64,000 bases of DNA, taken from Candidatus Portnoybacteria bacterium. Its GTDB lineage: Bacteria > Patescibacteriota > Minisyncoccia > Portnoybacterales > GWB1-42-6. Below the pieces are notes generated by a model. The model ran no database searches. It saw only the letters and a program-made list of their open reading frames with translations, and was not told the DNA's origin. Where the stretch lies: the NCBI GenBank assembly GCA_028688325.1, contig JAQTYI010000002.1:76379-140378 (forward strand), given 5' to 3'. Numbering within the stretch: position 1 is the stretch's first letter; each line of letters opens with the position of its first letter. Shown piece after piece: positions 32,648-64,000 of this stretch. The position numbers and the translations under genes are program-made.

Positions 32648-32676
32648 TTGCCAAAATCAACAAAAAATCATAAAAT
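32648..32676 (+). promoter_or_regulatory. Candidate promoter for the plus-strand glycan operon (TTGCCA-17-TAAAAT).
   Basis: ttgcca aaatcaacaaaaaatca taaaat. Confidence 0.45.
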
Positions 32677-32703
32677 CAAAACAGTGGAAATACCTTCTTA
32701 TTT

Positions 32704-34065
32704 ATGAGCGCCTTGACGAGAAAAATCAAAGAATTTTTTTGTTTGGCGGGCGATATCGCCATGCTTTATTTGGCGTTGTTTTTGACCCTGCTCATCCGTT
32801 ACGGCTACGATTGGCGGGAAAATTGGCGCTCCCATTTTTTGCCTTTTACCCTGATCTTTTTCTTTTCTTTAATAATTTTTTATATTCTCGGCCTTTACGA
32901 CCTGTCGCTGGCCCGCAATAATCTTTATTTCTTCACTGTTCTGACCAAGGCGCTTGTCATCAGCACCGTTCTGGCTATTTTATTTTTCTATTTTATTCCT
33001 TATTTCGGCATCGCGCCCAAAACCAATCTCCTCATAAGCTTCGGCATTTTTGCCGTTCTTTTTTTCTTTTGGCGGCAATTCTATAACCGCTTCATCAAAA
33101 GTCCCGGCCTGATGAATAATGTTCTGGTCCTGGGGCAGAACGAAGAAACAAAAGAACTGGTCCAATATATAAAAACCAATCCTCAGCTTGGCTATCGCAT
33201 AAAAAAAATCGTGAGCGCCGATGATGTTAAAATTCTTTACGATCTCATTGAAACCATCATCCAGGAAAAAATCCAGACCGTGGTCATCACCGCCAACCCC
33301 CACGAAGATAAAAACCTATCCAGGAATCTGTATCAATGCATTCCTTTGAAAATTACGGTGGCGGATATGCCGTTGTTCTATGAAAAAATCACCGGTAAAA
33401 TTCCGGTGTCCTCCATCGGCGAAATGTGGTTTTTACAGAATCTGATGAACAGCCATAAAATCTTCTTCGGGGGAGCGAAAAGGTGCGCCGATATTTTTTT
33501 CACGCTCATTATCGGGTTTTTCACTTTCGTGCTCACGCCTTTTATCGCTCTGCTGATAAAAATTGACAGCGTCGGCCCCGTTTTTATATGGCAAAAAAGG
33601 GTCGGGATAGACAACAAAATATTCAAGATAGCCAAATTCCGCTCCATGCTTGCGCTCGCGCCCGACGGCAGTGCCGAAAAAAATGGCGCCCAATGGTCTG
33701 ACGAAAAAGATAAACGGATAACCCGCGTGGGCAAGTGGCTGCGCAAAACGCGGCTGGACGAGCTGCCTCAGATTTGGAATGTTTTAAAAGGCGAGATGAG
33801 TTTTGTGGGGCCGCGGCCGGAACGACCGGAGTTCGCGTTTTCTAACGAATTGCTTTCTCGCGTCCCCTTCTACCAGGTGCGCCATTCCATAAAGCCGGGC
33901 CTCACCGGTTGGGCGCAGATAAAATATCCCTACGGCTCTTCGGTTGAAGACACGCTGCAAAAATTACAATACGACCTTTACTACATTAAAAACCGCTCGG
34001 CCGCGCTGGATCTGGCCATCACCTTGAAAACCATCAAAATAATCCTCTCCGGCGGCGGACGATAA
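32704..34065 (+). CDS. Polyprenyl-phosphate sugar-1-phosphate transferase (bacterial sugar transferase, WbaP/PglC family).
   Basis: N-terminal TM region, then C-terminal KFRSM ... DELPQ ... SFVGPRPERPEF ... GLTGWAQI motifs. Confidence 0.8.
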   Translation: MSALTRKIKEFFCLAGDIAMLYLALFLTLLIRYGYDWRENWRSHFLPFTLIFFFSLIIFYILGLYDLSLARNNLYFFTVLTKALVISTVLAILFFYFIPYFGIAPKTNLLISFGIFAVLFFFWRQFYNRFIKSPGLMNNVLVLGQNEETKELVQYIKTNPQLGYRIKKIVSADDVKILYDLIETIIQEKIQTVVITANPHEDKNLSRNLYQCIPLKITVADMPLFYEKITGKIPVSSIGEMWFLQNLMNSHKIFFGGAKRCADIFFTLIIGFFTFVLTPFIALLIKIDSVGPVFIWQKRVGIDNKIFKIAKFRSMLALAPDGSAEKNGAQWSDEKDKRITRVGKWLRKTRLDELPQIWNVLKGEMSFVGPRPERPEFAFSNELLSRVPFYQVRHSIKPGLTGWAQIKYPYGSSVEDTLQKLQYDLYYIKNRSAALDLAITLKTIKIILSGGGR

Positions 34066-34084
34066 TAAATGTGATTTATCGAAT

Positions 34085-34738
34085 ATGAACTTCTTTGAAT
34101 TAATAAAATCCCGGCGCAGCATCAGAAAATTTTCCCCTCAAAGCATCAGCCGAGATTTGATAGAAAAAATTATTGAGTCCGGCGCTTACGCCCCGTCCGC
34201 CTGCAATATCCAGGGCTGGCGGTTTGTCGTGGTTGATGAACCTCTGCTCAAAGAAAAAATCTTTGACCTGGGCGGATCCGCCATTATCAGATCGGCGCCT
34301 GTCGTAATCTTAGTTTTCTACGATAACCGCACCACCAATACAGAATACGCCGACTATATCCAAAGCGCCGCCGCCGCCATGCAAAATATGCTGCTGGCCG
34401 CCGCGGAACTGGGCTTGGGCGCCTGCTGGGTGGCCCACCTGCCGCGCAAAAAAGATTTGCGAAAACTTTTTAACTCTCCGAAATATTTTGAGCCGATCGC
34501 CGCGATGCTGCTGGGCTTTAAAGACGGCTCGCCGGACACCGCGATGCCGCGCAAATTTGCCCTGGCCAAGATCGTCGGTTATAATGCCTTTGCCGACATC
34601 GCCGAAAAAACCGGCGCGCCGGACAATCTTTTTTTAAAACGGCTGGCCAGAAAAATATATTATCGCCTGCCCGGCGGCCCGAAAAAACTCTTGAATAATT
34701 TTATCGATAAGAACTTCGTGAAAAAATTTAAAAATTAA
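34085..34738 (+). CDS. Nitroreductase-family flavoprotein.
   Basis: RRSIRKFSPQSISRDLIEKIIESGAYAPSACNIQGWRFVVV. Confidence 0.75.
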   Translation: MNFFELIKSRRSIRKFSPQSISRDLIEKIIESGAYAPSACNIQGWRFVVVDEPLLKEKIFDLGGSAIIRSAPVVILVFYDNRTTNTEYADYIQSAAAAMQNMLLAAAELGLGACWVAHLPRKKDLRKLFNSPKYFEPIAAMLLGFKDGSPDTAMPRKFALAKIVGYNAFADIAEKTGAPDNLFLKRLARKIYYRLPGGPKKLLNNFIDKNFVKKFKN

Positions 34739-34741: not shown

Positions 34742-35623
34742 ATGCCAAACTACAAGATAACCGGCTTGACCGCTGTCGTGCCGGTCCATAATGAAGAGTT
34801 AATAGTGAAAAAGGTGCTGGAAGACCTGAGGTCTTGCCTCGGGCAATCCGGACTCGACTGGGAGATAATCGCGGTTAATGACGGCTCAAAAGATAAAAGC
34901 CAAGCGATATTGGAAAGTATTTTCGGCATAAAGATCCTTACGCACCCCGAAAACCGCGGTTACGGCGCCAGTTTGAAAACCGGCATCAAAGAAGCGAAAT
35001 ATGACTGGATATTGATAATTGACGCGGACGGTACCTACCCCATCTCCGCCATCCCGGAATTTTTAAATTGCGCCGGCAATTACGATATGGTCAGCGGCTA
35101 CCGCACCGGCAAAAATCACGATGCCCGGTGGCTTGGCCTCCAAAAAATCGTCAAATTCATCCTGAAAAAATTGGTCGGCTATGTCTGCGGCCAAAAAGTC
35201 AGGGACATCAACTGCGGCCTCCGCGTTTTCAGCAAAAAGATAGTCCTGGAGTTTTGGCATCTTTATCCTGAAGGATTTTCCTTCACCACGACCTCGCTGA
35301 CCGCTTTTTTATCCCATGGCTACTCGGTCAAATTCTTGCCCATTGATTATCACCCGCGCCAAGGCAAATCCGGCATCCGGCCCCTGCGGGATTTTTACAA
35401 CTTCATCAATCTTATTCTGAAAATCGCCCTCTTCTTCCGCCCCCTGAAAGTTTTCGCGCCCATCAGCATACTGCTTTTTTTGGCCGGCCTTGTTGTGGCC
35501 GTTTATTCAGCGGTCTTCTTGCCCAAGATCCTGGATACCTCGGTAACCCTGCTCTTTGTTTCTTCTTTGCAAACGCTGTTTTTCGGACTCCTGGCCGCGC
35601 TGATAGTCCGGCGGCCGGAATAA
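34742..35623 (+). CDS. GT2 polyprenyl-phosphate glycosyltransferase (DPM1/ArnC-like) with C-terminal TM helices.
   Basis: VVPVHNEE ... IAVNDGSKDKS ... DADG; two C-terminal TM segments. Confidence 0.8.
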   Translation: MPNYKITGLTAVVPVHNEELIVKKVLEDLRSCLGQSGLDWEIIAVNDGSKDKSQAILESIFGIKILTHPENRGYGASLKTGIKEAKYDWILIIDADGTYPISAIPEFLNCAGNYDMVSGYRTGKNHDARWLGLQKIVKFILKKLVGYVCGQKVRDINCGLRVFSKKIVLEFWHLYPEGFSFTTTSLTAFLSHGYSVKFLPIDYHPRQGKSGIRPLRDFYNFINLILKIALFFRPLKVFAPISILLFLAGLVVAVYSAVFLPKILDTSVTLLFVSSLQTLFFGLLAALIVRRPE

Positions 35624-35639: not shown

Positions 35640-37052
35640 ATGAAAATCTTATTGATCAGCCCGCCTGATTCCAACGAGATCCTGAGTTGTAATCCGGAAC
35701 TGGTAAAAAAAGAGAGAGGTTGCGACCCGCCGCTGGGTCTTTTATATTTGGCCGGGTATCTGGAAAAACAACCGGGCCTCGAGATAAAAGTTCTGGACAC
35801 GCAAGTTGAAAAGCTGGATTACCGACAGATAGAAGAACGGGTCCGGGAATTTATGCCGGATGTAGTGGGCATGACCATTATGACTTTTACCATTTTTGAT
35901 GTGTTGGAAGTCGTGAAAATCGTTAAGAAAATATCGCCAACTATTAAAGTGGCTCTGGGCGGACCGCACGCACACATCTACCCCAAAGAAACCCTGGACC
36001 TGCCGGGCGTTGATTTTGCCATCTTGGGCGAAGGCGAAGCGGCTTTGGCTGGATTGCTCGCCAACATCAATCAACCGGAAAAATTGAAAATGGTAAAAAA
36101 TCTGGCCTTCAAGCATAACGGCCAATTCATCAATACCGGAGTCCAGGACTTCATCAAGGACCTTGATTCCCTGCCCTTCCCGGCGCGCCATCTTGTCCCC
36201 TACAAAAAATACACCAATCTCTTGGCCAAAAAAACACCCCACACCACCATGTTCACCTCGCGCGGCTGCCCTTACCAGTGCACTTTTTGCGACCGCCCAA
36301 CGATGGGCCGGTTCTTCCGTGCCCGCTCGGCTAAAAACATCGTGGACGAAATGGCGCAATGCGTAAAAATGGGCATCGAAGAAATTTTCATTTACGACGA
36401 CACTTTTACCGTTGACCGCCAGCGCGTTATTGCCATTTGCGACGAAATACAGCGGCGCGGCCTAAAATTCACTTGGGACATTAGGGCGCGCGTTAATACC
36501 GTGGACGAAGAAGTGCTGACCAAATTAAAAGCGGCCGGTTGCGAACGCATCCACTACGGCGTTGAGGCCGGCACTGAAAAGATCCTGAAAGTTCTGAACA
36601 AGGGGATCCACCTGGATCAAGCGCTGGCTGTTTTCCGCCTGACCCAAAAGATCGGCATCTCCACTTTCGCTTATTTTATGATCGGCGCGCCGGAGGAAAC
36701 CAAAGCCGATGTTTTGGCTTCCATTGAATTTGCCAAAAAACTGAACCCTGCTTTCGTCCAGGTGACCACGCTAACGCCTTTTCCGGCAACTAAGATATAT
36801 CTCGACGCGTTGGCCACGGGCCAGATATCCAATGACTACTGGCTGGAATTTGCCCGCCACCCCAAACGGGATTTCCAAACGCCCCACTGGACGAAGATCT
36901 TATCCGAAGAAGAGCTGCGGGAACTCTCAACCCGATTTTATAAAGAATTTTATGTCCGGCCCGGCTACATTTTTAAACAGCTTCTTCAAATAAGGTCTTT
37001 GGGCGAACTTATTAAAAAAAGCAAGGCCGGTTTAAAAATAATCTTCTCTTAA
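35640..37052 (+). CDS. B12-binding-domain radical SAM enzyme.
   Basis: N-terminal cobalamin-binding Rossmann-like region (MKILLISPP ... GMTIMT) and a TSRGCPYQCTFCD CxxxCxxC cluster. Confidence 0.8.
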   Translation: MKILLISPPDSNEILSCNPELVKKERGCDPPLGLLYLAGYLEKQPGLEIKVLDTQVEKLDYRQIEERVREFMPDVVGMTIMTFTIFDVLEVVKIVKKISPTIKVALGGPHAHIYPKETLDLPGVDFAILGEGEAALAGLLANINQPEKLKMVKNLAFKHNGQFINTGVQDFIKDLDSLPFPARHLVPYKKYTNLLAKKTPHTTMFTSRGCPYQCTFCDRPTMGRFFRARSAKNIVDEMAQCVKMGIEEIFIYDDTFTVDRQRVIAICDEIQRRGLKFTWDIRARVNTVDEEVLTKLKAAGCERIHYGVEAGTEKILKVLNKGIHLDQALAVFRLTQKIGISTFAYFMIGAPEETKADVLASIEFAKKLNPAFVQVTTLTPFPATKIYLDALATGQISNDYWLEFARHPKRDFQTPHWTKILSEEELRELSTRFYKEFYVRPGYIFKQLLQIRSLGELIKKSKAGLKIIFS

Positions 37053-37073: not shown

Positions 37074-37835
37074 ATGCTAAATTTCTTCTCCCGCCTTACC
37101 CAAGAAATCAAATACCAGCGGCAAAATGACTGGACGCTCCGGGAAGTGGGCGCGCATTGGGACGCCACCACGGACTATGACGACATCAACGAACGGACCT
37201 ATTCTTATTTCCGCCGCTTTGTTGACGCCTTCGCTCTCTATCCTGATTTGACGCCCGGCGCCACGCTGGATATCTGCAGCCGCACGGGCAACGGCACAGC
37301 TTACTATTTTGAACGCGGTAAAATTACGGATGTCGTCTGCGCCGATGTTTCCCAAAAAATGCTGGATATCTGCCACCAACACCTCAAAGACAAAAACATT
37401 GAGCACGAATTATCTCTTTTTACGGATTGGCCCCTGCCCTTCGCTGATAAACAATTCGATACTGTCTTGTCTTTTGAAACCATCGAACATATCGCCCAAC
37501 CCGAGGTCTTCCTGAAGGAGCTGGGGCGCGTTATCAAGCCCGGCGGCACCCTCATTCTGACTATGCCCAATATTTTATGGGAAGCTGTTCATTTTCTGGC
37601 CGCGGTCTTCAAATTCCATCACAGCGAAGGCCCGCACACTTTTTTGCGGAAAAAATTCGTGTCCGAGCAACTGGCCAAAAATAATTTTAAGATCCTCGCC
37701 CGGCAAACCACCATTTTAATTCCGGGCGGCCCCAAAAAACTGATAAAGCTGGGTGAGTATCTGGAAAAATTTTTGCCTGCTTTTATTGTTGACTTTCTGG
37801 GCCTGCGACACATTTTTATCTGCCAAAAAATTTAG
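37074..37835 (+). CDS. Class I SAM-dependent methyltransferase.
   Basis: LDICSRTGNG motif I and an IKPGGTLILT post-I region. Confidence 0.7.
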   Translation: MLNFFSRLTQEIKYQRQNDWTLREVGAHWDATTDYDDINERTYSYFRRFVDAFALYPDLTPGATLDICSRTGNGTAYYFERGKITDVVCADVSQKMLDICHQHLKDKNIEHELSLFTDWPLPFADKQFDTVLSFETIEHIAQPEVFLKELGRVIKPGGTLILTMPNILWEAVHFLAAVFKFHHSEGPHTFLRKKFVSEQLAKNNFKILARQTTILIPGGPKKLIKLGEYLEKFLPAFIVDFLGLRHIFICQKI

Positions 37836-37960: not shown

Positions 37961-39385
37961 ATGAAAATACTTTTAATCGTTCCTCCCTACACCAACTTTG
38001 AAGGCATGAAAGAATCCGGCGGCCATATGCTTTCGCTGGGACTGGCCTACATCGCGGCCTATTTGCGTTCAAAAAGCGACGACCAAATAGAAATATTGGA
38101 CACGGAAGTGGAAGGGTTGAATTATGACCAGATAAAAGACCGGATAAAAAAATATAGCCCGGATATCTGCGGCTTCAACTGCCCTACGCCGACCATGGCC
38201 CATGTCGGCCGCCTAACCGCCCTGATAAAGCAAGTTTTGCCCGCCTGCCAAGTGATCCTGGGCGGTATCCATCCCACGGTCATGCCGAACGAATCCCTCC
38301 AAGAAACCGGCGCCGATTTTGCGGTCATCGGCGAAGGCGAAATAACTTTTTATGAACTGATCGAAGCCCTGAAGCAAAAACAAACTGACCTTTCAAAAAC
38401 ACCCGGGCTGGCTTGGCGCATCGGCCAAAAAATCATCCTCAACGCGCCGCGCGAATTCATCAATGACCTGGATGCTCTGCCTTTCCCGGCGCGAGATCTA
38501 TTCGACCTGCCACTTTATTATTCCGCGCCAACCAAAAAAGTTAGCAAGGAGAACGCTACTCCCATCTTAACTTCGCGCGGCTGCCCTTTTAATTGTATCC
38601 ATTGCTGTTCCCGCGTGGTCTGGCAAGGCCGGTTGCGCTTCCGCTCGGCTCAAAATGTTCTGGCGGAGATCGAAGAATGCATCAATAAATACGACCTGAA
38701 AGAATTCAATTTTTTTGACGACACCTTTACCGCTAACCGCGCTCGCGTTATAGAAATATGCCGGGGACTGATTAACCGCCGTCTTAATATTTCCTGGATC
38801 TGTTTTTCCCGGGCTAATACCATAGACAAGGAGCTGGCGGCCATTATGAAGCGGGCCGGCTGCCAAAAGATATCCTTTGGCCTGGAAAGCGGTTCTCAAG
38901 AAATTCTGAACTTGATGAGAAAAAATACCACGCTGGCCATGGCGCGCCAAGCGGTCGCCGATGTCGCCAACAGTAATATTGCGGTCCATGCGAGCTTCAT
39001 GCTGGGAAATGTGGGCGAAACCGAAAACACCATAAAAGAAACCTTGGCTTTTGCTAAAGGCCTGCCGCTGGATAATGCCACTTTTTTCATCACCTCCCCT
39101 TTCCCCGGCACCGACCTCTACGATATCGCCCGGCGCCTCGGCAGCATCAACAGCCGGACCCGCTGGGAAGAATTCGCCCCGCTAACCAACGCTTCTCCCA
39201 TCCTCGTGCAAAAGAATGTTTCCAAGGAACGCCTGATATACTGGCAAAAGCGCGCCTTCCGGGAGTTTTACCTCCGGCCAAAATATATCATCAGGAAATT
39301 ACGCCTGCTGACTTCCTGGAGCGGCATAAAAACCCTGCTGGAAGGATTAAGAATTCTTATCAGGATAATATTTAAGAAAATTTAG
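37961..39385 (+). CDS. B12-binding-domain radical SAM enzyme.
   Basis: MKILLIVPP ... TSRGCPFNCIHCCS. Confidence 0.8.
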   Translation: MKILLIVPPYTNFEGMKESGGHMLSLGLAYIAAYLRSKSDDQIEILDTEVEGLNYDQIKDRIKKYSPDICGFNCPTPTMAHVGRLTALIKQVLPACQVILGGIHPTVMPNESLQETGADFAVIGEGEITFYELIEALKQKQTDLSKTPGLAWRIGQKIILNAPREFINDLDALPFPARDLFDLPLYYSAPTKKVSKENATPILTSRGCPFNCIHCCSRVVWQGRLRFRSAQNVLAEIEECINKYDLKEFNFFDDTFTANRARVIEICRGLINRRLNISWICFSRANTIDKELAAIMKRAGCQKISFGLESGSQEILNLMRKNTTLAMARQAVADVANSNIAVHASFMLGNVGETENTIKETLAFAKGLPLDNATFFITSPFPGTDLYDIARRLGSINSRTRWEEFAPLTNASPILVQKNVSKERLIYWQKRAFREFYLRPKYIIRKLRLLTSWSGIKTLLEGLRILIRIIFKKI

Positions 39386-40807: not shown

Positions 40808-41716
40808 ATGCTAAAAAAATTTCTTAAAAAAAGTTATCTGCTCATCGGCCTGGCTATCTTTGTTTGGGTTATGAAAGATATTAATTTTGCCGAGCTCGTT
40901 AAAATAATTCCCAATATAAATATCTGGTATTATATTTTGGCTCTTGTTTTATATCTGCCCGTCGCGCTGCTCAAATCCTACCGATGGAAAAAGATCCTGG
41001 AAATTCAAGGCATCGTCTATTCCTTTAAGGATGCTTTCTATATTTATAACTCCAGCCTGCTGCTGGGCTTGGTCACGCCGGGCAGGATAGGTGATGCCAG
41101 CAAGGTTCTCTACCTGAAAAAAGATAACCGATCTTTCGGGCAAGCGGTTTTTGGCGTCCTCTTTGACAAGGTCTCCGACTTGGTTTTTGTGGCTTTGTTC
41201 TTAGCGATCACTTTTCCTTTCTTGCCTCTGGTCCCGCGTCTGGCCGTCAATTACCCCGCTCTTTTTCAATTTTCCTTGCTCGTTGGCGGGTCGGCAATCA
41301 TTCTTTTCTCTTTCGTCTATTTTAAAAAAAATAGCCGGCTACGCCAGCTGACCCTGAGGACTATAGAAGAACTCAAGAAATTCAAGATAAAAGATGACCT
41401 CTACCTGTTGATCCTGACCGCTTTCACTTGGTTCATCTATTTTTTCATGATCTATCTTATCGCGGTCAGCGTCGGCATCAATAGCCAAATCGGATTTTTC
41501 TACTTAGCTTTTTCCGCCGCCCTGATAACTTTAGCCGCCCTCTTGCCAATCTCGGTTCTGGGCATCGGCACCCGAGAAGCCGCCTTATTATTTTTTCTGC
41601 TACCGCTGGGATTAAATAAAGAAACTATCGTCCTTTTTTCGCTGCTGATAACCTTCAATTATCTCGGCCTTTTTCTGATCTGCTTCTATGCCTGGTTCAA
41701 AAAACCGATGGTATAA
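40808..41716 (+). CDS. Flippase-like / lysylphosphatidylglycerol-synthase-TM-region (UPF0104) membrane protein.
   Basis: 8 TM helices; YRWKKIL ... GRIGDASKVLYL signature. Confidence 0.6.
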   Translation: MLKKFLKKSYLLIGLAIFVWVMKDINFAELVKIIPNINIWYYILALVLYLPVALLKSYRWKKILEIQGIVYSFKDAFYIYNSSLLLGLVTPGRIGDASKVLYLKKDNRSFGQAVFGVLFDKVSDLVFVALFLAITFPFLPLVPRLAVNYPALFQFSLLVGGSAIILFSFVYFKKNSRLRQLTLRTIEELKKFKIKDDLYLLILTAFTWFIYFFMIYLIAVSVGINSQIGFFYLAFSAALITLAALLPISVLGIGTREAALLFFLLPLGLNKETIVLFSLLITFNYLGLFLICFYAWFKKPMV

Positions 41717-56433: not shown

Positions 56434-56437
56434 ATTT

Positions 56438-57310
56438 TTACTCCCGCCTATTAACATTTAATCTGCAAATAACGCCTTTCTTTATAACCTCTCTTTGACC
56501 CAAAACCACCCATTTGAACCACAACCGGAAAATATCTTCTATGGAATCAATTATGGCCCCCAGCCTTGTCCCCTTGGCCTCGCCGGCTTTCCTGGGAATA
56601 AAATTCACCGGAACTTCTTTTATGGACAGCCCGTGCCAATAAGACTTTATCAATCCTTCGGGATTGGCAAAAGAACTTTTCGCTTCATATTTTACCGACT
56701 GGATCCATTTGGTTGGATAAAAAGTGATATTCTGAAAATCCGAAAGAGGCACCCGAAAAAGAACCCTTATAAGAAGATAATTGATGACCGACACGACAGC
56801 TTTAAATATCGTGTCGGAGCGCTTGGTCAAGTGCTTAACGCCGAAAAGTTTTAAAATTACGGCCACTGGGGCTAAAAACCTTAATTTTATCTCTACTGGA
56901 CTCCGCCTGACACCTTGAACGATATCGTAGGTTTTTAGATTTTCTAAAAACAACCTCAAGTATGAAACATCGTAACACCAATCCACCATTTGCCAAAATA
57001 AATAATCTTTGGTAGCCGCCTGAATCGCCCGCCGGCTGGAATAGCCAATATTCAAATTCTTATGGTTCCGGAATATTTTTAATCGCGGATTCTTGGCCCG
57101 GATCGACTCGGCGATTTCGTAGGTTTTATCTGTGCTACCATCGTCTATCAGAATAATTTCATAGTCGTACACCGCCTCATCCATCAGGTTTAACGCTCTT
57201 TCCAGAAACTCCTTAATCAAAAGCTCTTCATTATAAGCCCAGCTGAGCAAAGAAACACTCCGGTCAAATTTACCATTTAATAAATTTTTTAATCCGTTAT
57301 CTTTAGTCAT
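56438..57310 (-). CDS. GT2 glycosyltransferase.
   Basis: LLSWAYNEE ... ILIDDGSTDKT. Confidence 0.7.
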   Translation of the reverse strand: MTKDNGLKNLLNGKFDRSVSLLSWAYNEELLIKEFLERALNLMDEAVYDYEIILIDDGSTDKTYEIAESIRAKNPRLKIFRNHKNLNIGYSSRRAIQAATKDYLFWQMVDWCYDVSYLRLFLENLKTYDIVQGVRRSPVEIKLRFLAPVAVILKLFGVKHLTKRSDTIFKAVVSVINYLLIRVLFRVPLSDFQNITFYPTKWIQSVKYEAKSSFANPEGLIKSYWHGLSIKEVPVNFIPRKAGEAKGTRLGAIIDSIEDIFRLWFKWVVLGQREVIKKGVICRLNVNRRE

Positions 57311-57343: not shown

Positions 57344-58360
57344 TTATATTTTTTGCTCCGTAGCCTTCAATTTGGTCCTGGCCAATAAAATTAAATCTGA
57401 TCCCTCTATGATGCCTCCTATCATACCTATAGTCAAAGAGAGCACCCCGAAAGCCAGAGACAAGAAAAGCGCCGATTCCCTGGCTATCCCGACAGAACCC
57501 AAAAAATAAACAAAAGAACCCTCTCTGATGCCAAAACCAAAAAAGGTGACCGGAGCCAAAATTAAGGCGAGGTTAGACAGACAATTTACGACAAAAACAT
57601 CAAAAAAAGAAACATCTATACTAGCAGCCGCGGCCAGCGCATAAATAGCGACTGAGCTGATCACATACATTATAGCCCCCACCGCCACAGCCCAAGCCAA
57701 TAAAAAATAGTTTTTTGAATAAGATCGGAGCGCAAAAAAAACTTTATCTAAAATATCTTCCGCCGGAGAATATATCCTTGCCGCTATCTTTTTTAAACAA
57801 ACCTCTATTTCCCCCATAAACAGCAAAGAACAAAAAAATAAAGCCAGGAGGGCGACTGAGATTATCGCCAACTCGTGATAATAAGGGAATCCTTCAGAAC
57901 CCGGAACAAAAGAGCCAAGAACAATAGACAAAAGTAAGCCGACAAAACCGGTCAAACGATCCATAAAAATAGCGCTCACAAGAACTCGCCTATCTTGCGA
58001 AGTCTTAAAAACCCGATAGCACTTGATCAGATCGCCGGTGACTGCCCCACCAGGCATGATCGCGGTATAGAATAAGCCGATCAAGTTCAGCTTCAAATAA
58101 TAAATCAGTTTCAATTTAGCGCCTAAAAAAGAGGCCAACCGGCGCCATTTAACGGTGCTGATAAAAAAATGCGCGCTACAAATAAAAAATGCAACCAGCA
58201 CCAAACTAAGACTGGTCTTAAAAAAAACTGAATAAAAAACCTTAAACTCTATTTTTAAAAAAATTAAATATAGGATAAGGAAAGTGGCAACCATCCGTAA
58301 AAAAAAGAGAGTTTTATTTTTTTGTTCTTTTTGTTTCAAAAACATACATATAAGCCCCAA
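57344..58360 (-). CDS. Flippase-like (UPF0104) membrane protein, second copy.
   Basis: 8 TM helices, same architecture as 40808-41716. Confidence 0.5.
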   Translation of the reverse strand: MGLICMFLKQKEQKNKTLFFLRMVATFLILYLIFLKIEFKVFYSVFFKTSLSLVLVAFFICSAHFFISTVKWRRLASFLGAKLKLIYYLKLNLIGLFYTAIMPGGAVTGDLIKCYRVFKTSQDRRVLVSAIFMDRLTGFVGLLLSIVLGSFVPGSEGFPYYHELAIISVALLALFFCSLLFMGEIEVCLKKIAARIYSPAEDILDKVFFALRSYSKNYFLLAWAVAVGAIMYVISSVAIYALAAAASIDVSFFDVFVVNCLSNLALILAPVTFFGFGIREGSFVYFLGSVGIARESALFLSLAFGVLSLTIGMIGGIIEGSDLILLARTKLKATEQKI

Positions 58361-58366: not shown

Positions 58367-59020
58367 CTATTGATCTCGCTTCTTAACCGCGATATAAACA
58401 TTGGCGTAGACCGCTGGTTCTCCTTTTATCCTGCCGTCCAGCCAAGCCGCCAATTTTTGACTCCAACGCAAAAACCTATTAGCCCAAGGCCCTTGTTTTT
58501 TTTCTTTATAGGCCTTAAAACGGCTAAAAAAAGACAATCGGACCAGTTCTTTAAGCGTAGTAAAGAATTTTCCGTAAGATTCGCACTCTAAAATTTCAAA
58601 ACCGGCGTTCCGAAACAAAGATATTAACCCGTCTTTGGTGTAGCGAAAATAATCTTTGGGGTCGGGATGATAGGGCGCCAAGAATGGGCATGATAAAACA
58701 CATATTCCGCCACTCTTTAATACCCGGAATATCTCCTCTATCATTACCCATGGCTTCTCAACATGCTCTAAAACTTGGGTCGAAATGACCGTATCAAAAG
58801 AGCCGTCTTCAAACGGCAAAGCCAAAACATCCCCCACCACATCTATATGTTCGCCCGGGAACATATCTAAAGCGATGTATTCGGTCGCTTTGTCTTTTAT
58901 AATATCGCGGTATTTGGCCGAACCCGCCCCCAAATCCAAGGTCCGTCCGACAATGAAACGGGTAAAATATTGGACCGCTTCCTTGGTTTGAGTTATATTT
59001 TTATCGTTAATTTTTTTCAT
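58367..59020 (-). CDS. Class I SAM-dependent methyltransferase.
   Basis: TLDLGAGSAKY motif I; VLKSGGICVL. Confidence 0.7.
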   Translation of the reverse strand: MKKINDKNITQTKEAVQYFTRFIVGRTLDLGAGSAKYRDIIKDKATEYIALDMFPGEHIDVVGDVLALPFEDGSFDTVISTQVLEHVEKPWVMIEEIFRVLKSGGICVLSCPFLAPYHPDPKDYFRYTKDGLISLFRNAGFEILECESYGKFFTTLKELVRLSFFSRFKAYKEKKQGPWANRFLRWSQKLAAWLDGRIKGEPAVYANVYIAVKKRDQ

Positions 59021-59708
59021 TTTCGCAGACCAAAAAATTCAAGAATGACCAGTTAGGCCAGGCAAAAATATTTAAAATTCGGTGCCAACCGACCATACGG
59101 CTCGGGAAAAAATAAGTCAGCAAAGAAGAAACGGGAAAGGTCGGAAAAAGACCCCGCCTTTTTTTTATCGTGAACTTAAATTCCCTCAGAAGCTCCAAGT
59201 ATTCGGCGATCGGACGGTCGCTGATATGGCGCTTCGCCTCGGAGGTCCTGATGAGCCGGCCCAGAAAGAAAAAAGTGAACCGGGAAGCAAAATGCGCCAA
59301 ATTGGACAAAGTCAGGATCAAAGTTCCGCCCGGCTTTAATATCCTCTTTATTTCTTTCAGCGCCGCTTCCTGGTCTTCAAAAGATAGATGTTCTAACACG
59401 CAAAGACACAGCGCTGTGTCAAAGCTGTTATCGGCAAATCCCGTTCGCGTGAGGCCGCGTTTTAAAACAAATTCGGATTCGTAATTCAGGTCCAGCCCGA
59501 CAATATCATATCCCCTTTCTTTGAACTTCTCCACTAAAACCCCTTCCCCGCAACCCAAGTCAATGATCTTCCGGCTTTTATCCAAACTCGTTAAGGTTTT
59601 TTCCACCAATCTCATCTTGGCCACATACACGGGAAAAAACCGCCAGTCATTATCGAGGTTCTTATGGTAATCGCCTTTTTCCAGATATTCGTTCTCTCTA
59701 TTAGCCAT
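59007..59708 (-). CDS. Class I SAM-dependent methyltransferase.
   Basis: IIDLGCGEGVL motif I; LKPGGTLILT. Confidence 0.7.
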   Translation of the reverse strand: MANRENEYLEKGDYHKNLDNDWRFFPVYVAKMRLVEKTLTSLDKSRKIIDLGCGEGVLVEKFKERGYDIVGLDLNYESEFVLKRGLTRTGFADNSFDTALCLCVLEHLSFEDQEAALKEIKRILKPGGTLILTLSNLAHFASRFTFFFLGRLIRTSEAKRHISDRPIAEYLELLREFKFTIKKRRGLFPTFPVSSLLTYFFPSRMVGWHRILNIFAWPNWSFLNFLVCENEKN

Positions 59709-59793: not shown

Positions 59794-60747
59794 ATGGCAA
59801 ACGAAATCTATCTTTCTCTGGTCTCTCCGGTCTGCAACGAAGAGCCCAGTCTGAAAGAACTCTACGCGAAAATTAAAAAAGCTCTCGGCGCCATTGATAA
59901 AAAGTCCGAGATAATTTTTGTTGACGACGGCTCTTCCGATAACAGCTTCCGCCTGCTGCGGGAGCTGGCCGCCAACGACGATGGCGTAAAGATCGTCCGC
60001 TTCATCCGGAACTATGGCCAAACCGCGGCCTTGGCGGCCGGGTTTGATCTGGCCCAAGGCGAGGTCATAATCCAGATGGATGCCGATCTGCAAGATGACC
60101 CAGAGGATATTCCCAGGTTTTTAGAAAAGATCAACGAGGGCTACGACCTGGTGGTCGGCTGGCGGAAGAACCGGCAGGACCGGTACCTGACCAAAACCTT
60201 ACCCTCAAAGATCGCCAACGCCATCATTTCCCGGATCACCAAAGTTAAGCTCCATGATTATGGCTCTCCCATGAAAGCTTACCGGAGCGGGATATTAAAA
60301 AATATATCTCTCTATGGAGAGATGCACCGCTTCATCCCCGCTTATATGGCCTGGCACGGCGCCAAGATCATTGAGATAGAAGCCACGCATCACGCGCGGC
60401 AGTTCGGCCAAACCAAATACACCCTCTGGAAGACCTTTAAGGTCATCTTAGATGTCATCACGGTAAAATTTCTGCTTAACTACATTAACCGGCCTATGCA
60501 TTTTTTTGGCGGCGCGGGCTTTTTTGCTTTGGCCGCCAGCTTTTTAACCCTGGCCGCGGCCCTGATCCTCAAATTCGGCTATCAATTCAACCTAAATCGC
60601 AATCCGCTCCTGCTCATTTCGGTTTTCTTAGCTATCGTCGGCGTGATGTTCATTCTGCTTGGCCTGCTGGCTGAAATATTAGTCCGGGTATATTTTGCCG
60701 CCCAGAATAAGCAAAGCTATATCGTCAAAGAAAAAATAAATCTATAA
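59794..60747 (+). CDS. GT2 polyprenyl-phosphate glycosyltransferase (DPM1/ArnC-like) with C-terminal TM helices.
   Basis: LSLVSPVCNEE ... FVDDGSSDNS ... MDADLQDDP. Confidence 0.8.
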   Translation: MANEIYLSLVSPVCNEEPSLKELYAKIKKALGAIDKKSEIIFVDDGSSDNSFRLLRELAANDDGVKIVRFIRNYGQTAALAAGFDLAQGEVIIQMDADLQDDPEDIPRFLEKINEGYDLVVGWRKNRQDRYLTKTLPSKIANAIISRITKVKLHDYGSPMKAYRSGILKNISLYGEMHRFIPAYMAWHGAKIIEIEATHHARQFGQTKYTLWKTFKVILDVITVKFLLNYINRPMHFFGGAGFFALAASFLTLAAALILKFGYQFNLNRNPLLLISVFLAIVGVMFILLGLLAEILVRVYFAAQNKQSYIVKEKINL

Positions 60748-61997
60748 TGCGCTTTTTTTCCAAGCTCCCCAGAGCCAAGGCCTATTTGAAATTATCAGAA
60801 TTGCTGATGATTTTTTTAAAGATACTGTCCACCAAGCTTCAGGCCGGCGAAAAAACGATAGCCTGGGAAGCGGCCTTCAGTGAGCGCCTGGGCTCCACCG
60901 GCGCTCTTTGTTTATCCCGGGCCCGGTTAGCCTTATTTTTTTTACTGAAAAATCTGGGCCTGCCGGCGGGCAGCGAAATCATTATGACCCCCCTGACCAT
61001 CGCCGATATGGTCAACGCGGTGCGCTGGGCGAAGTTGAAGCCGGTTTTTTGCGACTTGGGCGTCAATACCTATAATATCGACTACCGGATGCTGCGCCAA
61101 CTCATTACTCCGCGCACCCGCATCCTTTTTATCACCCACCTGAATGGCCTGGCCACGGATATGGACGAGATAATGGCCATCGCCCGCCAGCATAGTTTGA
61201 TAGTTATTGAAGACGCCTCTCAAGCCTTGGGCGCCGCTTTCAAAGGTAAAACGCTGGGAACGTTCGGGCTGGCCGGTATCTTCAGCCTATCTTTCATGAA
61301 AACCTGCTGCACTCTTTTTGGCGGAATGATAATTTCCGATGACCGCGAGCTCCTGAAAAAAATCCGCCAAGAAACCAGAAATTTTCCGGCACCCGGCAGA
61401 GTCTCTTTATTGAAAGAAACTATCAGGAATATTATAATTTATCTGGCCACCAACCGTTTTGTTTTTTCGCTGGGCACCTATTATTTCATAAAATTTTCCG
61501 GCCGCCTGGTCGCCAAATTCATTAAGAGCAATCCACCGGCCGAATTGACCGACGAGCCGCCAAAAAAGCTTCTTTGCTCTTATACCGATTGCCAAGCCGA
61601 GCTGGGGCTAAAAATATTAAAGCGCTTATCAGCGGAGGATGGGCAAAGAATAAAAAATGTTGAAGCCTTGACCGCCGCGCTCTCCGGTGAAGCAAAAAAA
61701 TATCTTCCGCTTATACTGCCGGAAACTAAAAATGTTTTTTGGCGCCTGCCCTTCCAGACCAACGATCCGATAAATTTCCAAAAATACTTGCTGAAGAATT
61801 ATATCGATAGCGCCAGTACCAATCTGATCGTGGCCACGGAAGAGGAAGCCTTCAAAGAATACGCCGGCCAACCCGCGCCCAACGCCCAACTCGCCCACCA
61901 AACAATATTCCTGCCTGTCCACTCCTCTTTCAGCGCCAACGATATGAGATTCCTGGCGCGAATTCTAAATAATTATACCGGCCAAAACCGAGCCTAA
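60747..61997 (+). CDS. DegT/DnrJ/EryC1-family aminotransferase-like protein.
   Basis: IIMTPLT ... IVIEDASQALGA ... FSLSFMKTC (PLP lysine). Confidence 0.6.
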   Translation: MRFFSKLPRAKAYLKLSELLMIFLKILSTKLQAGEKTIAWEAAFSERLGSTGALCLSRARLALFFLLKNLGLPAGSEIIMTPLTIADMVNAVRWAKLKPVFCDLGVNTYNIDYRMLRQLITPRTRILFITHLNGLATDMDEIMAIARQHSLIVIEDASQALGAAFKGKTLGTFGLAGIFSLSFMKTCCTLFGGMIISDDRELLKKIRQETRNFPAPGRVSLLKETIRNIIIYLATNRFVFSLGTYYFIKFSGRLVAKFIKSNPPAELTDEPPKKLLCSYTDCQAELGLKILKRLSAEDGQRIKNVEALTAALSGEAKKYLPLILPETKNVFWRLPFQTNDPINFQKYLLKNYIDSASTNLIVATEEEAFKEYAGQPAPNAQLAHQTIFLPVHSSFSANDMRFLARILNNYTGQNRA

Positions 61998-62001
61998 AAA
62001 T

Positions 62002-63099
62002 ATGCTTAAACAGCTTAAACGCCAGTACCATAATATTTTCAAAATCGGCGCGGTTTCCCCCTGGCCGCTGCTACGCAACGGCCTGACCTTTCCTTTCCGC
62101 TATAAATTCAATCTGGACTCCAAACCCGTCAACATCATCTGGGACATCACTTATCGCTGCAACCTCAATTGCCATTATTGTTTTTTTGCCGTCAGCCGAC
62201 CGCTAAAAAAAGAGGTTGAGTTGCCGACCGAAAAAATAATCAAATTCGTCTCGCAAGTTGCCAAATATAAGCCCAGTTTTTATTTTACCGGCGGCGAACC
62301 GCTGCTGCGACCGGACCTGGAAAAAATAATCGCGGCCATCCGCGCCAATAAAATGAAGGTCGGCCTGAACACCAACGCCACTTTAATGACCCGCGAGCGC
62401 CTGCTTAGCATGGATAAAGCCGGTTTGAACTACATCATCGTTTCGCTCGACCCGAACAAAGAAACAACGGATAAAGCGCGCGGAGCGGGTGTCTACGACA
62501 AAGCCCTGCAAACCATCAAGATGGCCAAAGAGATGAATTTGCGAGTCCGCCTGACGGTTAACTGCGTGGTGGACGAAACCAATTTCCAATATTTGGACGG
62601 CTTCCTGGACATGATCGAAACGCTCAATGTTGACGCGCTGAAATTATCATTTGTGCATTTCAGCGCCGGCGCCGAGATAAAGAACCATGTGGCCGATTGC
62701 GCGCGTCGGCTCGGGATCGACGCCAATTGGGCGCCCGATTGTTTTCAAAAAGAAATCCCGGGTTTTGGCGAAGAGATTGCCGCCAAAATCCGATCCCTCA
62801 TGCCAAAGATCAAACGAATGAAAACACCGGTATCTTTCAACCCCAATCTCAGCGAAAAAGAAACCGTTAACTGGTTCAACTCCGCCAAGCCCTTGAACCG
62901 AAAATGCCTTTTCATTTTCAATGTGGTCCGGTTGTCGCCCAACGGCGATATTTATCCCTGCCAGCTCGTCAACCACCCGGTCGGCAACATCACGCAAGGC
63001 GATTTTCTTAAAATTTACAATAATCAATTCTATAAGACCCTGCGCCGAGAATTCAAAAAGGCGCCCTTCCCCGCCTGCTTGCGCTGCAACAAACAATAA
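62002..63099 (+). CDS. Radical SAM / SPASM-domain enzyme.
   Basis: DITYRCNLNCHYCF and a C-terminal CxxC ... CLRC region. Confidence 0.75.
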   Translation: MLKQLKRQYHNIFKIGAVSPWPLLRNGLTFPFRYKFNLDSKPVNIIWDITYRCNLNCHYCFFAVSRPLKKEVELPTEKIIKFVSQVAKYKPSFYFTGGEPLLRPDLEKIIAAIRANKMKVGLNTNATLMTRERLLSMDKAGLNYIIVSLDPNKETTDKARGAGVYDKALQTIKMAKEMNLRVRLTVNCVVDETNFQYLDGFLDMIETLNVDALKLSFVHFSAGAEIKNHVADCARRLGIDANWAPDCFQKEIPGFGEEIAAKIRSLMPKIKRMKTPVSFNPNLSEKETVNWFNSAKPLNRKCLFIFNVVRLSPNGDIYPCQLVNHPVGNITQGDFLKIYNNQFYKTLRREFKKAPFPACLRCNKQ

Positions 63100-63104
63100 T
63101 CCCA

Positions 63105-64000
63105 TGACAAACCAACCAAAAATAATTTTTACCCGCCCCTTGCTAACCCCGGAAGAGATGTACGGAGAGCTGGCCAGCGCCGGCGCGGCCGAGGCCTCAG
63201 TGGGCCTTTGTTCTTTAGCAGCCGCCACCCGGCAAGCCGGTTTTGGCACCCAAATAATCGACGCAGTCGCTTTAAATTTGAAAAATGACGAGCTGGCCGC
63301 TCAGATTGTGGCCGCCGCACCGGATTTTGTCGGCATTTCAGTGGTCACGCTAGCCGCCTATAACGCCGGCGACCTGGCCGAAAAAATAAAAAAATTAAAT
63401 CCCGAAATCATCACTCTGATCGGCGGCGTCCATATCACTTCCGTGCCGGAAGAGACCATGAAGCGCTTTCCCGCTTTTGATATCGGCATCATCGGCGAAG
63501 CGGAAATCACGATTGCGGAGTTATTAAAGGCCTTGCGCGATAAACGAAAATTAGCCGATATTCCCGGGCTGGTCCTTCGCCAAGAAGGCGCTCTGATAAA
63601 AACTCCCAAAAGAGAGTTCATCAAAGACCTTGATTCCTTGCCGCTGCCGGCTTGGGACCTCCTGCCCGATCTCCACCAATACTACAAGCCGCCGGCTTGG
63701 AGCTTGAACCAGGATACTTCCATGCTAATTATTTCTTCCCGCGGCTGTTCCAACGCCTGTATTTATTGCGACCGGGGCTGTTTTGGCACATTCGTGCGCA
63801 TCCACAGCGCCGACTATGTTTTTAAGATGATAAAAGACCTCTACGAAAACTACGGCGTTAAGCAGTTCCGCATCAACGACGATAATTTTATCCTTTTTAA
63901 ATCTCGGACCCGAGAAATTTGTCATAAAATAATTGAATCCAAGCTCCCCATCAAGTGGTCCTGTTTTGGCCGGGCCGACTCGGTGGAACCGGAAATGCTG
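63105..64000 (+). CDS. B12-binding-domain radical SAM enzyme, partial (3' end beyond the window).
   Basis: ATG at 63105; N-terminal B12-binding-like region, then SSRGCSNACIYCD; frame open to the window end. Confidence 0.7.

Follow-up and report, generated by a model that had tools for sequence, protein, structure and literature searches.

The window analysed here, a 64-kb stretch of a Candidatus Portnoybacteria contig, contains a glycan gene island in which eight of 27 genes encode radical S-adenosylmethionine (rSAM) enzymes. We interpret this locus, with a probability of roughly 50%, as a mosaic surface-glycan island at a conserved murB-adjacent site, in which a polyprenyl-diphosphate-linked backbone pathway is combined with lipid-linked-sugar decoration modules that include rSAM enzymes with B12-binding domains (B12-rSAMs). 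The backbone pathway is represented by a WbaP-type initiating transferase within the window and by Wzx and glycosyltransferase family 4 (GT4) genes just beyond it. The decoration modules, of which there are at least two, are of the three-component type: a GtrB/ArnC-like family 2 glycosyltransferase (GT2), a UPF0104 membrane protein and transferases with the GT-C fold. The functional core is a cassette of GT2a, B12rSAM1 and a class I methyltransferase, joined in the candidate phyla radiation (CPR) usually by a nitroreductase-like flavoprotein and commonly by UPF0104 and GT-C proteins. Gene content was assigned by Pfam and NCBIfam scans.

In the window, the core cassette is encoded on the plus strand. 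GT2a (34742..35623; 293 aa, PF00535) is a polyprenyl-phosphate glycosyltransferase of the DPM1/AglJ/GtrB/ArnC type by similarity and has a C-terminal transmembrane (TM) hairpin, B12rSAM1 (35640..37052; 470 aa) has both a B12-binding domain (PF02310, 98 bits) and a radical SAM domain (PF04055, 94 bits) with the cluster motif CPYQCTFC, and MT1 (37074..37835; 253 aa) is a class I SAM methyltransferase (PF08241 and related families). The nitroreductase-family flavoprotein is encoded at 34085..34738 on the same strand (217 aa; PF00881, 118 bits). Homologues of B12rSAM1 in the database search numbered 5,862. Its orthologue group is tight, with full-length identities of 55-100% in the best 120 clusters, and the orthologues span at least seven phylum-level groups. 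A survey covering tens of loci yielded 17 that are non-redundant and have both a B12rSAM1 orthologue (53-91% identity) and enough flanking sequence. A GT2a orthologue (43-81% identity) is present in all 17 and lies directly upstream of the B12rSAM1 orthologue in 16; the exception is a Saccharibacteria locus (L009), in which it is found 2.5 kb away on the opposite strand. These loci derive from Patescibacteria (L088-L098, L136), Saccharibacteria (L009), Omnitrophota (L004), Candidatus Brocadia (L002), KSB1 (L135), Anaerolineae (L005) and the DPANN archaeon Iainarchaeum (L008). In a scan of genome contigs, the matches listed were mostly paralogues of 30-40% identity, with three true B12rSAM1 orthologues among them.

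The association extends to the other members of the cassette. A methyltransferase gene adjoins the pair in most loci, with MT1 orthologues (49-77% identity) directly downstream of B12rSAM1, and the GT2, rSAM and methyltransferase genes of Brocadia overlap by ATGA. One Patescibacteria locus encodes a natural rSAM-methyltransferase fusion, P0042 (L088, 2616-4793; 725 aa, checked on the DNA), of which the rSAM part is 59% identical to B12rSAM1 and residues 477-725 are 59% identical to MT1. The neighbours of P0042 encode UPF0104, GT2, nitroreductase, a homologue of the island protein Mem568 (described below) and a YfhO-type GT-C. Nitroreductase orthologues (44-66%) are found between or beside the pair in CPR loci (L009, L088, L091-L098, L136), and a UPF0104 gene forms part of the unit in L088, L092 and L135. 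An earlier note on this DNA, made from the sequence alone, had proposed that genomic context be mined for conservation of a GT2/B12-rSAM/UPF0104 association; such conservation is borne out at least for GT2a and B12rSAM1.

Ten of the loci have 5 kb or more on both sides of the cassette, and in seven of these a recognisable GT-C gene lies within 5 kb: PMT_2 in L004, L008 and L096, GT87 in L005, and the Mem568 family in L009, L088 and L136. Two others, those of Brocadia and KSB1, have an unclassified polytopic protein instead. A constant GT2-rSAM pair with interchangeable GT-C families would be expected of a cassette that provides a lipid-linked donor for transferases specific to each lineage. 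The Brocadia protein (L002, 12231-14339; 702 aa) is encoded directly after the cassette, with approximately eight N-terminal TM segments and a C-terminal PA14 carbohydrate-binding domain; by analogy with GT136 (PMC11127046), it is possibly a GT-C that has escaped recognition and bears a carbohydrate-binding module. The KSB1 cassette (L135, 5531-11141) is compact, its five genes (encoding a 520-aa polytopic protein, GT2, the B12rSAM1 orthologue, a methyltransferase and UPF0104) being located between nqrE-like and nqrF-like genes of an Na+-NQR operon.

The open reading frame (ORF) map of the window agrees with the three blocks delimited by the earlier note: plus strand 32704-41716, minus strand 41720-59708 and plus strand from 59794 to the window end. 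The island portion in the window is 98.5% coding with a largest gap of 125 bp, and contains 27 genes rather than approximately 29. Its glycan context is real, as judged from gene content: one Bac_transf initiating transferase, one nitroreductase, three GT2, two LPG_synthase_TM (UPF0104) proteins, five B12-binding plus Radical_SAM proteins, three Radical_SAM plus SPASM proteins, two DegT proteins, an RfbB-like 4,6-dehydratase, WbqC, a NodU/TobZ-type carbamoyltransferase, an AsnB amidotransferase, two large polytopic membrane proteins, and four class I methyltransferases where five SAM methyltransferases had been counted. The initiating transferase (TIGR03025 above cutoff) and the UPF0104, DegT, RfbB-like, WbqC, NodU-type, AsnB and nitroreductase assignments made earlier were all confirmed by Pfam or NCBIfam, as was the rSAM complement of five B12-binding and three SPASM-type enzymes (Pfam). 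Eight rSAM genes among 27 would lie far above any genome-wide rSAM frequency.

Left of 32.5 kb, the window encodes housekeeping functions (AlaRS, MnmA, SecA, SecDF, a polyamine cluster, a ribosome hibernation factor and MurB), and the left island boundary at approximately 32.5 kb is real. On the right, window 59325-64000 recurs at 100% identity in contigs L132 and L134, which extend past the window end and there encode, in order, the rest of B12rSAM5, a Wzx-type Polysacc_synt protein, a sixth B12-rSAM, two GT4, a seventh B12-rSAM, a CmcI-type methyltransferase and another GT4. Since these identical contigs carry on with further glycan genes, the island is incomplete in the window; in full it measures at least 41 kb and has at least ten rSAM genes, eight of them in the window. 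B12rSAM1 is identical to MDD2753504.1 from a Candidatus Portnoybacteria metagenome-assembled genome (MAG; 788,852-bp contig), and Portnoybacteria are assigned to the Parcubacteria, a group of Patescibacteria. The flanks (SecA, S30AE, MurB and an approximately 580-aa protein) are shared by a related CPR contig (L089), in which a different set of GT2, B12-rSAM, DegT and methyltransferase genes lies between them. The G+C content of the island is mosaic (range 0.39-0.50): it is 0.39-0.42 at 44001-52000, in the middle of the island, versus 0.48-0.50 at 34001-40000 and 60001-64000, the parts that correspond to the GT2a cassette and the GT2c block. This contrast suggests that the island modules differ in origin. 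Shared flanks with differing content, together with mosaic G+C, are what variable surface-glycan loci typically show when they occupy one fixed site in the chromosome.

The island opens with PGT (32704..34065, plus strand; 453 aa, five TM-like segments), a WbaP/EpsB-type polyprenyl-phosphate glycosylphosphotransferase (PF02397, 209 bits; TIGR03025, 358.8 bits, above the 295.6 cutoff) with the predicted role of starting a polyprenyl-diphosphate-linked glycan. With respect to the Wzx/Wzy pathway, this initiating transferase is present, a Wzx-type Polysacc_synt gene occurs only in the continuation (L132), and no Wzy was found in the scanned genes. Among the three GT2 proteins, GT2a matches the NCBIfam models AglJ, Dol-P-hexose transferase, ArnC and PpgS, all below cutoff, and the solved structures of ArnC, GtrB and DPMS at E values of 4e-14 to 5e-12; the GtrB alignment reaches into the TM region, and the TM segments are at residues 228-289. 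GT2c (59794..60747, plus strand; 317 aa, PF00535, 115 bits) is ArnC/PgfS-like, matching the ArnC (206 bits) and PgfS (160 bits) models over its full length below their cutoffs, with two C-terminal TM helices at 241-259 and 272-290. GT2b (56438..57310, minus strand; 290 aa, PF00535, 77 bits) has a maximum KD19 of 1.05 in its last 90 aa and no C-terminal TM helices. A GT-A-fold synthase with a C-terminal TM hairpin, the mark of the Gtr/Arn type, is thus found in GT2a and GT2c and not in GT2b; the former two are predicted to be polyprenyl-phosphate-type glycosyltransferases and the latter to be soluble or peripheral. The earlier description of three DPM1/ArnC-like GT2 with C-terminal TM helices holds for GT2a and GT2c, by similarity and by their TM hairpins, and fails for GT2b.

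Two UPF0104/LPG_synthase_TM proteins are encoded. Flip1 (40808..41716, plus strand; 302 aa, approximately eight TM segments) matches PF03706 at 140 bits and TIGR00374 at 72.8 bits, above the 43.2 cutoff, and is by sequence a candidate lipid-linked-sugar flippase; Flip2 (57344..58360, minus strand; 338 aa, approximately seven TM segments) matches PF03706 at 94 bits and TIGR00374 at 38.7 bits, below that cutoff. None of the known flippase families (GtrA, ArnE/F, MATE/Wzx) is represented in the window, and a Wzx-type gene lies just beyond its end.

The two large membrane proteins, Mem568 (43146..44852, minus strand; 568 aa) and Mem670 (44872..46884, minus strand; 670 aa), have no significant family match. 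Their structures were predicted because a sequence search of Protein Data Bank (PDB) chains was uninformative. The homologues gathered, 22 for Mem670 and 56 for Mem568, are all from uncultured CPR and DPANN organisms. The AlphaFold2 (AF2) models of Mem670 and Mem568 are confident (pLDDT 84.9 with pTM 0.90, and 87.7 with 0.87, respectively), with the qualification that they were built on shallow alignments of 22 and 30 sequences. In these models both proteins are unambiguous GT-C folds. Mem670 would represent a rare CPR/DPANN family related to DUF2298, and Mem568 a distantly PMT_2/ArnT-like enzyme; some members of the two families match DUF2298 and PMT_2, respectively, weakly. The predicted fold of Mem670 is nearest AglB and STT3; membership of the STT3/AglB/PglB oligosaccharyltransferases was rejected for it despite this fold, as it has no WWDxG motif. 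Mem568 as a Wzy or O-antigen ligase was likewise rejected: Wzy_C scores 20 bits versus a cutoff of 31.7, and the fold search returned GT-C enzymes, with neither WaaL nor Wzy among the top matches. On the basis of its model, Mem568 is the likely extracytoplasmic transferase of the GT2a cassette. The earlier view of these two proteins as GT-C-like is therefore upheld by confident predicted structures. Of the GT2, flippase and GT-C logic proposed with it, the synthase and the transferase stand, and the flippase role of UPF0104 is an assumption.

All eight rSAM proteins have CxxxCxxC, which in the five B12-domain enzymes lies within the PF04055 core. In addition to B12rSAM1, the B12-domain enzymes are B12rSAM2 (37961..39385, plus strand; 474 aa, PF02310, 83 bits, PF04055), B12rSAM3 (39387..40805, plus strand; 472 aa, assigned by Pfam, no curated family reached), B12rSAM4 (41720..43135, minus strand; 471 aa, assigned by Pfam, motif CPFCCAYC) and B12rSAM5 (63104..64000, plus strand; PF02310, 74 bits, motif CSNACIYC), which is cut at the window end and is 476 aa at full length in the identical contig L132. 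The five PF02310 scores are 98, 83, 43, 47 and 74 bits versus a gathering cutoff of 32.1. B12rSAM3 and B12rSAM4 are 58% identical and are recent paralogues; the other B12-rSAMs are mutually 25-36% identical (36% for B12rSAM1 and B12rSAM2). B12rSAM2 orthologues occur at 55-89% identity in L089-L093. The SPASM-type enzymes are SPASM1 (49886..50830, minus strand; 314 aa), a small radical SAM/SPASM-twitch enzyme whose start overlaps the end of the WbqC gene region, SPASM2 (50918..51847, minus strand; 309 aa), which is 26% identical to SPASM1, and SPASM3 (62002..63099, plus strand; 365 aa, PF04055, 97 bits). All three have PF04055 and PF13186, and none reaches an equivalog. The best solved relatives of SPASM1 are BtrN (6e-10) and BlsE, both sugar- or cyclitol-acting; those of SPASM3 are PqqE and BlsE, which are generic matches.

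The class B subfamilies considered were HpnJ, BchE, HpnR, PhpK, GenK/KedN5-type, BzaD and the C-methylases of ribosomally synthesised and post-translationally modified peptide (RiPP) pathways. The best scores were 218 bits versus a cutoff of 578 for HpnJ, 236 versus 481 for BchE and 154 versus 600 for PhpK. B12rSAM1 has HpnJ (218 bits, nearly full length) and BchE (204 bits) as its best NCBIfam models and was rejected as either, both scores being far under the cutoffs; its nearest solved relative is AprD4 (1.5e-29), followed by OxsB. B12rSAM2 scores 236 bits for BchE and 208 for HpnJ, and B12rSAM4 matches the PhpK-family, BchE and HpnJ models, all below cutoffs. The B12-rSAMs had been described as C-methylase-type. 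With no curated cutoff reached, and with HpnJ, BchE and AprD4 as the closest relatives, this label is not justified by sequence; C-methylation is an assumption taken from the activity most often found in this class.

MT1 and B12rSAM2 are separated by a 125-bp spacer (37836-37960) with a perfect inverted repeat of 12 nt, CCCGTTAGAAGC / GCTTCTAACGGG. RNA folding predicts that this repeat closes a hairpin of approximately 115 nt with a 14-bp stem (z = -3.06, no Rfam match), the 3' arm of which abuts the B12rSAM2 ATG. The hairpin is apparently absent in a 90%-identical relative (L090), since the tblastn matches of MT1 and B12rSAM2 leave no room for it there. Possible readings of the modelled hairpin are a terminator, an attenuator or an insertion scar. 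An Rfam scan of the whole window identified no family at the gathering threshold, including any cobalamin or other riboswitch in this spacer.

If the island is a mosaic surface-glycan locus as proposed, its core cassette would operate as follows. GT2a would build a polyprenyl-phosphate-linked hexose or hexosamine on the cytoplasmic face of the membrane; the adjacency of murB points to lipid II and hence, we infer, to the polyprenyl-phosphate pool. B12rSAM1 would then carry out a radical change of the lipid-linked sugar at an unactivated carbon, most likely C-methylation, with dehydration or rearrangement possible. MT1 would add an O- or N-methyl group, the flavoprotein would supply electrons or perform redox tailoring, the UPF0104 protein would flip the donor across the membrane, and Mem568 would transfer the resulting sugar to a glycan or protein at the surface; the remaining rSAMs would diversify further sugars likewise. 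A more specific proposal is that the cassette performs cobalamin-dependent radical chemistry directly on polyprenyl-phosphate sugars, which would create a new class of donors for surface placement by GT-C enzymes. We advance this tentatively, as possible rather than probable; under it, the chemistry could be C-methylation, deoxygenation or ring rearrangement.

Several observations weigh against the overall interpretation. All steps past the loading of polyprenyl phosphate by GT2a are inferred. None of the eight rSAMs reaches any curated NCBIfam subfamily cutoff. Neither the nearest models of B12rSAM1 (HpnJ and BchE) nor its nearest structure (AprD4) is a methylase. AprD4 has a B12-binding domain yet is not known to use cobalamin, and so the presence of the domain is not proof of cobalamin use. 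No RmlA-type nucleotidyltransferase is encoded in the window, and GT2b, which lacks a TM hairpin, departs from ArnC in topology. A distance of 6 kb, with three more rSAM genes, separates Mem568 from GT2a, the models of Mem568 and Mem670 share the shallow alignments mentioned above, and one of the ten well-flanked loci (L089) has no polytopic GT-C candidate within 9 kb of the cassette. The UPF0104 family is not known to flip polyprenyl-phosphate sugars, and the related HpnL has no assigned function (10.1101/2025.07.29.667474).

The main alternative concerns the stage at which the rSAMs act, which could be an earlier one: they and the methyltransferases might modify soluble nucleotide-activated sugars, with the GT2 then loading the finished sugar, as ArnA and ArnB act before ArnC. 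RfbB and two DegT proteins are encoded in the island together with the SPASM rSAMs, and this sequence of events fits the SPASM/WbqC/RfbB/DegT operon at least as well as the on-lipid model. Every rSAM is predicted to be soluble, BtrN and BlsE (nearest to SPASM1) act on soluble sugar-like substrates, AprD4 (nearest to B12rSAM1) acts on a soluble pseudodisaccharide, and in L087 B12-rSAMs are found amid heptose nucleotide-sugar genes. We nevertheless consider action at the nucleotide-sugar stage rather unlikely, and modestly favour action on the lipid. This is because the minimal cassettes of Brocadia and KSB1 comprise GT2, rSAM and methyltransferase (with membrane proteins) and no nucleotide-sugar enzymes, because HpnJ and Cds, the two B12-type rSAMs reviewed from glycolipid settings, are proposed to act once the sugar is attached to a lipid (PMC13459092), and because three-component systems have auxiliary enzymes that alter lipid-linked sugars (PMC11127046). 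The tight, translationally coupled GT2-rSAM pairing across phyla also speaks against the nucleotide-sugar stage, none of these points being decisive. Precedents for on-lipid tailoring are HpnI, HpnK, HpnJ and Cds (PMC13459092) and the auxiliary epimerases of three-component systems (PMC11127046).

A different end product is conceivable for the GT2/B12-rSAM/UPF0104 unit, namely a membrane glycolipid or cyclitol-type head group made in a manner analogous to HpnI-HpnJ-HpnL or calditol synthase, which might serve in the remodelling of lipids scavenged by the CPR cell. Hopanoid loci do join HpnI (GT2), HpnJ (B12-rSAM) and HpnL (LPG_synthase/AglD family) (PMC13459092; 10.1101/2025.07.29.667474), HpnJ is the top NCBIfam model for B12rSAM1, and there is no recognised GT-C beside the Brocadia cassette. 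This product is nonetheless improbable, as the HpnJ score falls far under its cutoff, GT2a resembles DPM1, GtrB and ArnC with HpnI absent from its matches, neither shc nor hpnH is among the window genes scanned, and GT-C transferases, which use lipid-phosphate-linked donors, are near the cassette in seven of ten well-flanked loci. The likeness of several island enzymes to those of antibiotic pathways (AprD4-like and BtrN-like rSAMs, a TobZ-type carbamoyltransferase, DegT, and B12-rSAMs like GenK) raises the thought of an aminoglycoside-like or other secreted secondary-metabolite cluster. Such a cluster is very improbable here: the initiating transferase, Wzx, GT4s, polyprenyl-phosphate GT2s, UPF0104 and two GT-C proteins are hallmarks of an envelope glycan, no 2-deoxy-scyllo-inosose synthase, resistance or export genes were found, and the genome of the organism is approximately 0.8 Mb. 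Finally, RiPP pathways often include SPASM domains and class B rSAMs, and sub-threshold matches to ApyD, rSAM_ocin_1 and sactipeptide maturase models were obtained, so that the rSAMs could be imagined as maturases and all or part of the locus as producing a modified peptide, the outcome that the earlier note had named as refuting its view. No such outcome was seen, and we reject it as having next to no likelihood. Precursor peptides cannot be accommodated in the island, which is 98.5% coding and has gaps of 125 bp or less in which there is no precursor ORF. Scores for all RiPP models stay below cutoff, and neither protease nor transporter nor RiPP-recognition genes were identified. The rSAM genes lie among sugar genes, to which they are translationally coupled, and B12rSAM1 is coupled to GT2 across phyla.

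The island also encodes other tailoring enzymes. The nitroreductase-like flavoprotein has BluB as its best NCBIfam match (71 bits, below the 150 cutoff), and possible roles by sequence are those of electron donor or redox tailoring enzyme. Three further methyltransferases are encoded on the minus strand: MT2 (53549..54619; 356 aa, PF13847, PF08241, PF03966), in which a Trm112-like zinc ribbon (Trm112_arch, 52 bits) is fused to a class I methyltransferase, MT3 (58367..59020; 217 aa, PF08241, 62 bits) and MT4 (59007..59708; 233 aa, PF08241, 65 bits), both class I. The sugar aminotransferase DegT1 (46972..48096, minus strand; 374 aa, PF01041, 376 bits) scores 337 bits for PseC, below the 423 cutoff, and 252 bits for ArnB; DegT2 (60747..61997, plus strand; 416 aa, PF01041, 179 bits) is a DegT-family pyridoxal-phosphate enzyme. 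The RfbB-like nucleoside-diphosphate-hexose 4,6-dehydratase (48104..49141, minus strand; 345 aa, PF16363 and PF01370) scores 345 bits for TIGR01181, just under the 365 cutoff. A WbqC-family protein, typical of O-antigen loci (49188..49889, minus strand; 233 aa, PF08889, 234 bits), has no NCBIfam match and no PDB relative, and no functional literature was found for it. The O-carbamoyltransferase (51837..53549, minus strand; 570 aa) is of the NodU/CmcH/TobZ type (PF16861, 224 bits; PF02543, 148 bits), and the AsnB-type glutamine amidotransferase (54571..56457, minus strand; 628 aa, PF00733, 287 bits, GATase_7) scores 479 bits for TIGR01536, above the 267 cutoff. From these sequences, a C-/O-methylated, carbamoylated, amidated amino sugar would be a reasonable product to expect.

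The earlier note had called this concentration of rSAM genes in a glycan context highly unusual. Relative to characterised systems this remains so, whereas comparably dense loci recur in CPR, DPANN, Omnitrophota, Bathyarchaeia and on a Solidesulfovibrio plasmid. In a sample biased by its selection for a B12rSAM1 relative, 15 of 52 loci of at least 15 kb have at least four rSAM genes. The densest include an Omnitrophota locus with ten rSAM genes in 21 kb (L013) and one from an unclassified bacterial MAG with eight in 20 kb (L017). A Nealsonbacteria locus has a Mem670 homologue among at least four B12-rSAMs and heptose genes, and dense loci are likewise present in CPR (L087, L089), DPANN and Bathyarchaeota (L027). 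The glycan locus of Solidesulfovibrio carbinolicus DSM 3852 (plasmid pDCAR1, 48896-90299; L137) has four rSAM genes, one following a glycosyltransferase gene and three consecutive ones next to heptose (SIS, PfkB) genes, as well as nonulosonate (NeuB, PseF) genes and asnB. Five predicted proteins of 926-2331 aa (P0234, P0272, P0284, P0249, P0262) have two to five tandem B12-rSAM or SPASM units, with P0272 appearing to join rSAM-MT-MT-GT2-rSAM; these were not used as evidence, as gene-calling artefacts are possible.

The B12rSAM1-like subfamily has 14,323 cluster representatives at E <= 1e-30. As the subfamily is very large and dense loci recur, the window is a good example of a widespread class of glycan loci, one that is apparently undescribed so far: recent reviews of class B and lipid-modifying rSAMs include no enzyme in a polyprenyl-phosphate glycan pathway, and a targeted literature search (radical SAM/cobalamin with glycosyltransferase, polyprenyl, CPR/DPANN) recovered no description of such a cassette. 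Several of the lineages that carry the cassette (CPR, DPANN, Omnitrophota, anammox bacteria and Chloroflexota being among the carriers) are not known to make B12. The island may also imply dependence on external cobalamin, and if the on-lipid cobalamin chemistry is correct, the surface coat of lineages that do not make B12 would depend on cobalamin from hosts or neighbours. The cell surface of CPR and DPANN organisms is their host interface, and the devotion of approximately one third of the island genes to radical chemistry implies unusual, possibly C-alkylated sugars there. Brocadia can be grown in enrichment culture. Experiments are feasible, since the cassette is present in Brocadia and a multi-rSAM glycan locus resides on a plasmid of S. 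carbinolicus, a cultured sulfate reducer whose pDCAR1 could serve as an experimental model of glycan loci rich in rSAM genes. Class B radical SAM enzymes are among the largest enzyme groups with mostly unknown functions, with >220,000 members (PMC12931638); a three-to-six-gene cassette conserved across domains of life offers a defined, testable context for this space.

Several features lie upstream of the island. Window 23265-25266 encodes, side by side, the S component of an ECF transporter (177 aa), a DUF1893/TM1506 protein and an FMN reductase; the S component, which may conceivably import cobalamin, has no NCBIfam match. The polyamine cluster (25310-29075) has two deoxyhypusine-synthase-like genes, one of which reaches the homospermidine-biosynthesis model (460 bits, cutoff 450), an agmatinase/arginase-family gene and a pyruvoyl-dependent arginine decarboxylase gene. 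A TrwB/VirD4-like coupling ATPase (6484-8472; 662 aa) with a treble-clef zinc finger is encoded in an otherwise housekeeping region. A 595-aa protein with no more than a weak Peptidase_M30 match is encoded at 30753-32540, in the interval separating murB from the island. The syntenic CPR locus L089 has a 579-aa protein of similar size and position, and because of this counterpart a functional link of the 595-aa protein to the island is possible, as an acceptor or processing enzyme for instance.

In comparison with known systems, the multi-rSAM loci described above resemble the island in mixing B12-domain and SPASM rSAM genes with GT2, methyltransferase, sugar-nucleotide and AsnB genes; outside CPR relatives, however, their rSAMs are 25-40% paralogues rather than the B12rSAM1 orthologue, and none of these loci is characterised. 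The rSAMs of aminoglycoside biosynthesis (the C-methylases GenK and GenD1, the diol dehydratase AprD4 and the dehydrogenase BtrN) perform radical chemistry at unactivated sugar carbons, and AprD4 and BtrN are the nearest solved structures to B12rSAM1 and SPASM1, respectively, a likeness at the superfamily level only. Unlike the enzymes proposed here, they act on soluble pseudo-oligosaccharides in actinomycete secondary metabolism and are not coupled to a polyprenyl-phosphate GT2.

The Arn pathway, which adds L-Ara4N to lipid A, is similar in that a DegT-type aminotransferase gene is found next to an ArnC-like GT2 gene (here GT2c-DegT2) and in that it follows the order proposed for the cassette: a sugar is placed on undecaprenyl phosphate, crosses the membrane and is then handed on by a GT-C enzyme. 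In that pathway, deformylation by ArnD, a single tailoring step, takes place on the lipid-linked sugar. It differs from the island in that the latter has no ArnA or ArnD, has UPF0104 rather than ArnE/F as the candidate flippase, has GT-C proteins from other families, and has rSAM enzymes with no Arn counterpart; in addition, the organism probably has no lipid A.

The hopanoid HpnI-HpnK-HpnJ-HpnL module shares with the cassette the same triad of protein types. HpnJ is the best curated model for B12rSAM1 and is proposed to act on a sugar that is already lipid-attached (PMC13459092), and HpnL is in the same LPG_synthase/AglD superfamily as Flip1 and Flip2 (10.1101/2025.07.29.667474). In contrast to that module, B12rSAM1 scores 218 versus 578 bits, GT2a is DPM1/GtrB-like and not HpnI-like, no hopanoid genes were found in the window scans, and the GT-C partners imply a transferable donor and not a terminal cyclitol ether.

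Three-component systems (GtrA/B/C, CsbB-GtcA-YfhO and PPPRS-MATE-GT136) follow the logic proposed here, in which a polyprenyl-phosphate-sugar synthase, a flippase and a GT-C enzyme decorate a separately made glycan (PMC11127046, PMC7389260). Auxiliary enzymes that alter the lipid-linked sugar have been described for those that handle pentofuranoses (PMC11127046), and a YfhO gene is present in the related locus L088. None of the systems described has a cobalamin-type radical SAM enzyme or a dedicated methyltransferase and flavoprotein, the candidate flippase of the island belongs to another family, and in the island several modules are stacked together. What would be new, from these gene sequences, is the integration of a class B radical SAM tailoring cassette into an otherwise known form of three-component polyprenyl-phosphate glycosylation.

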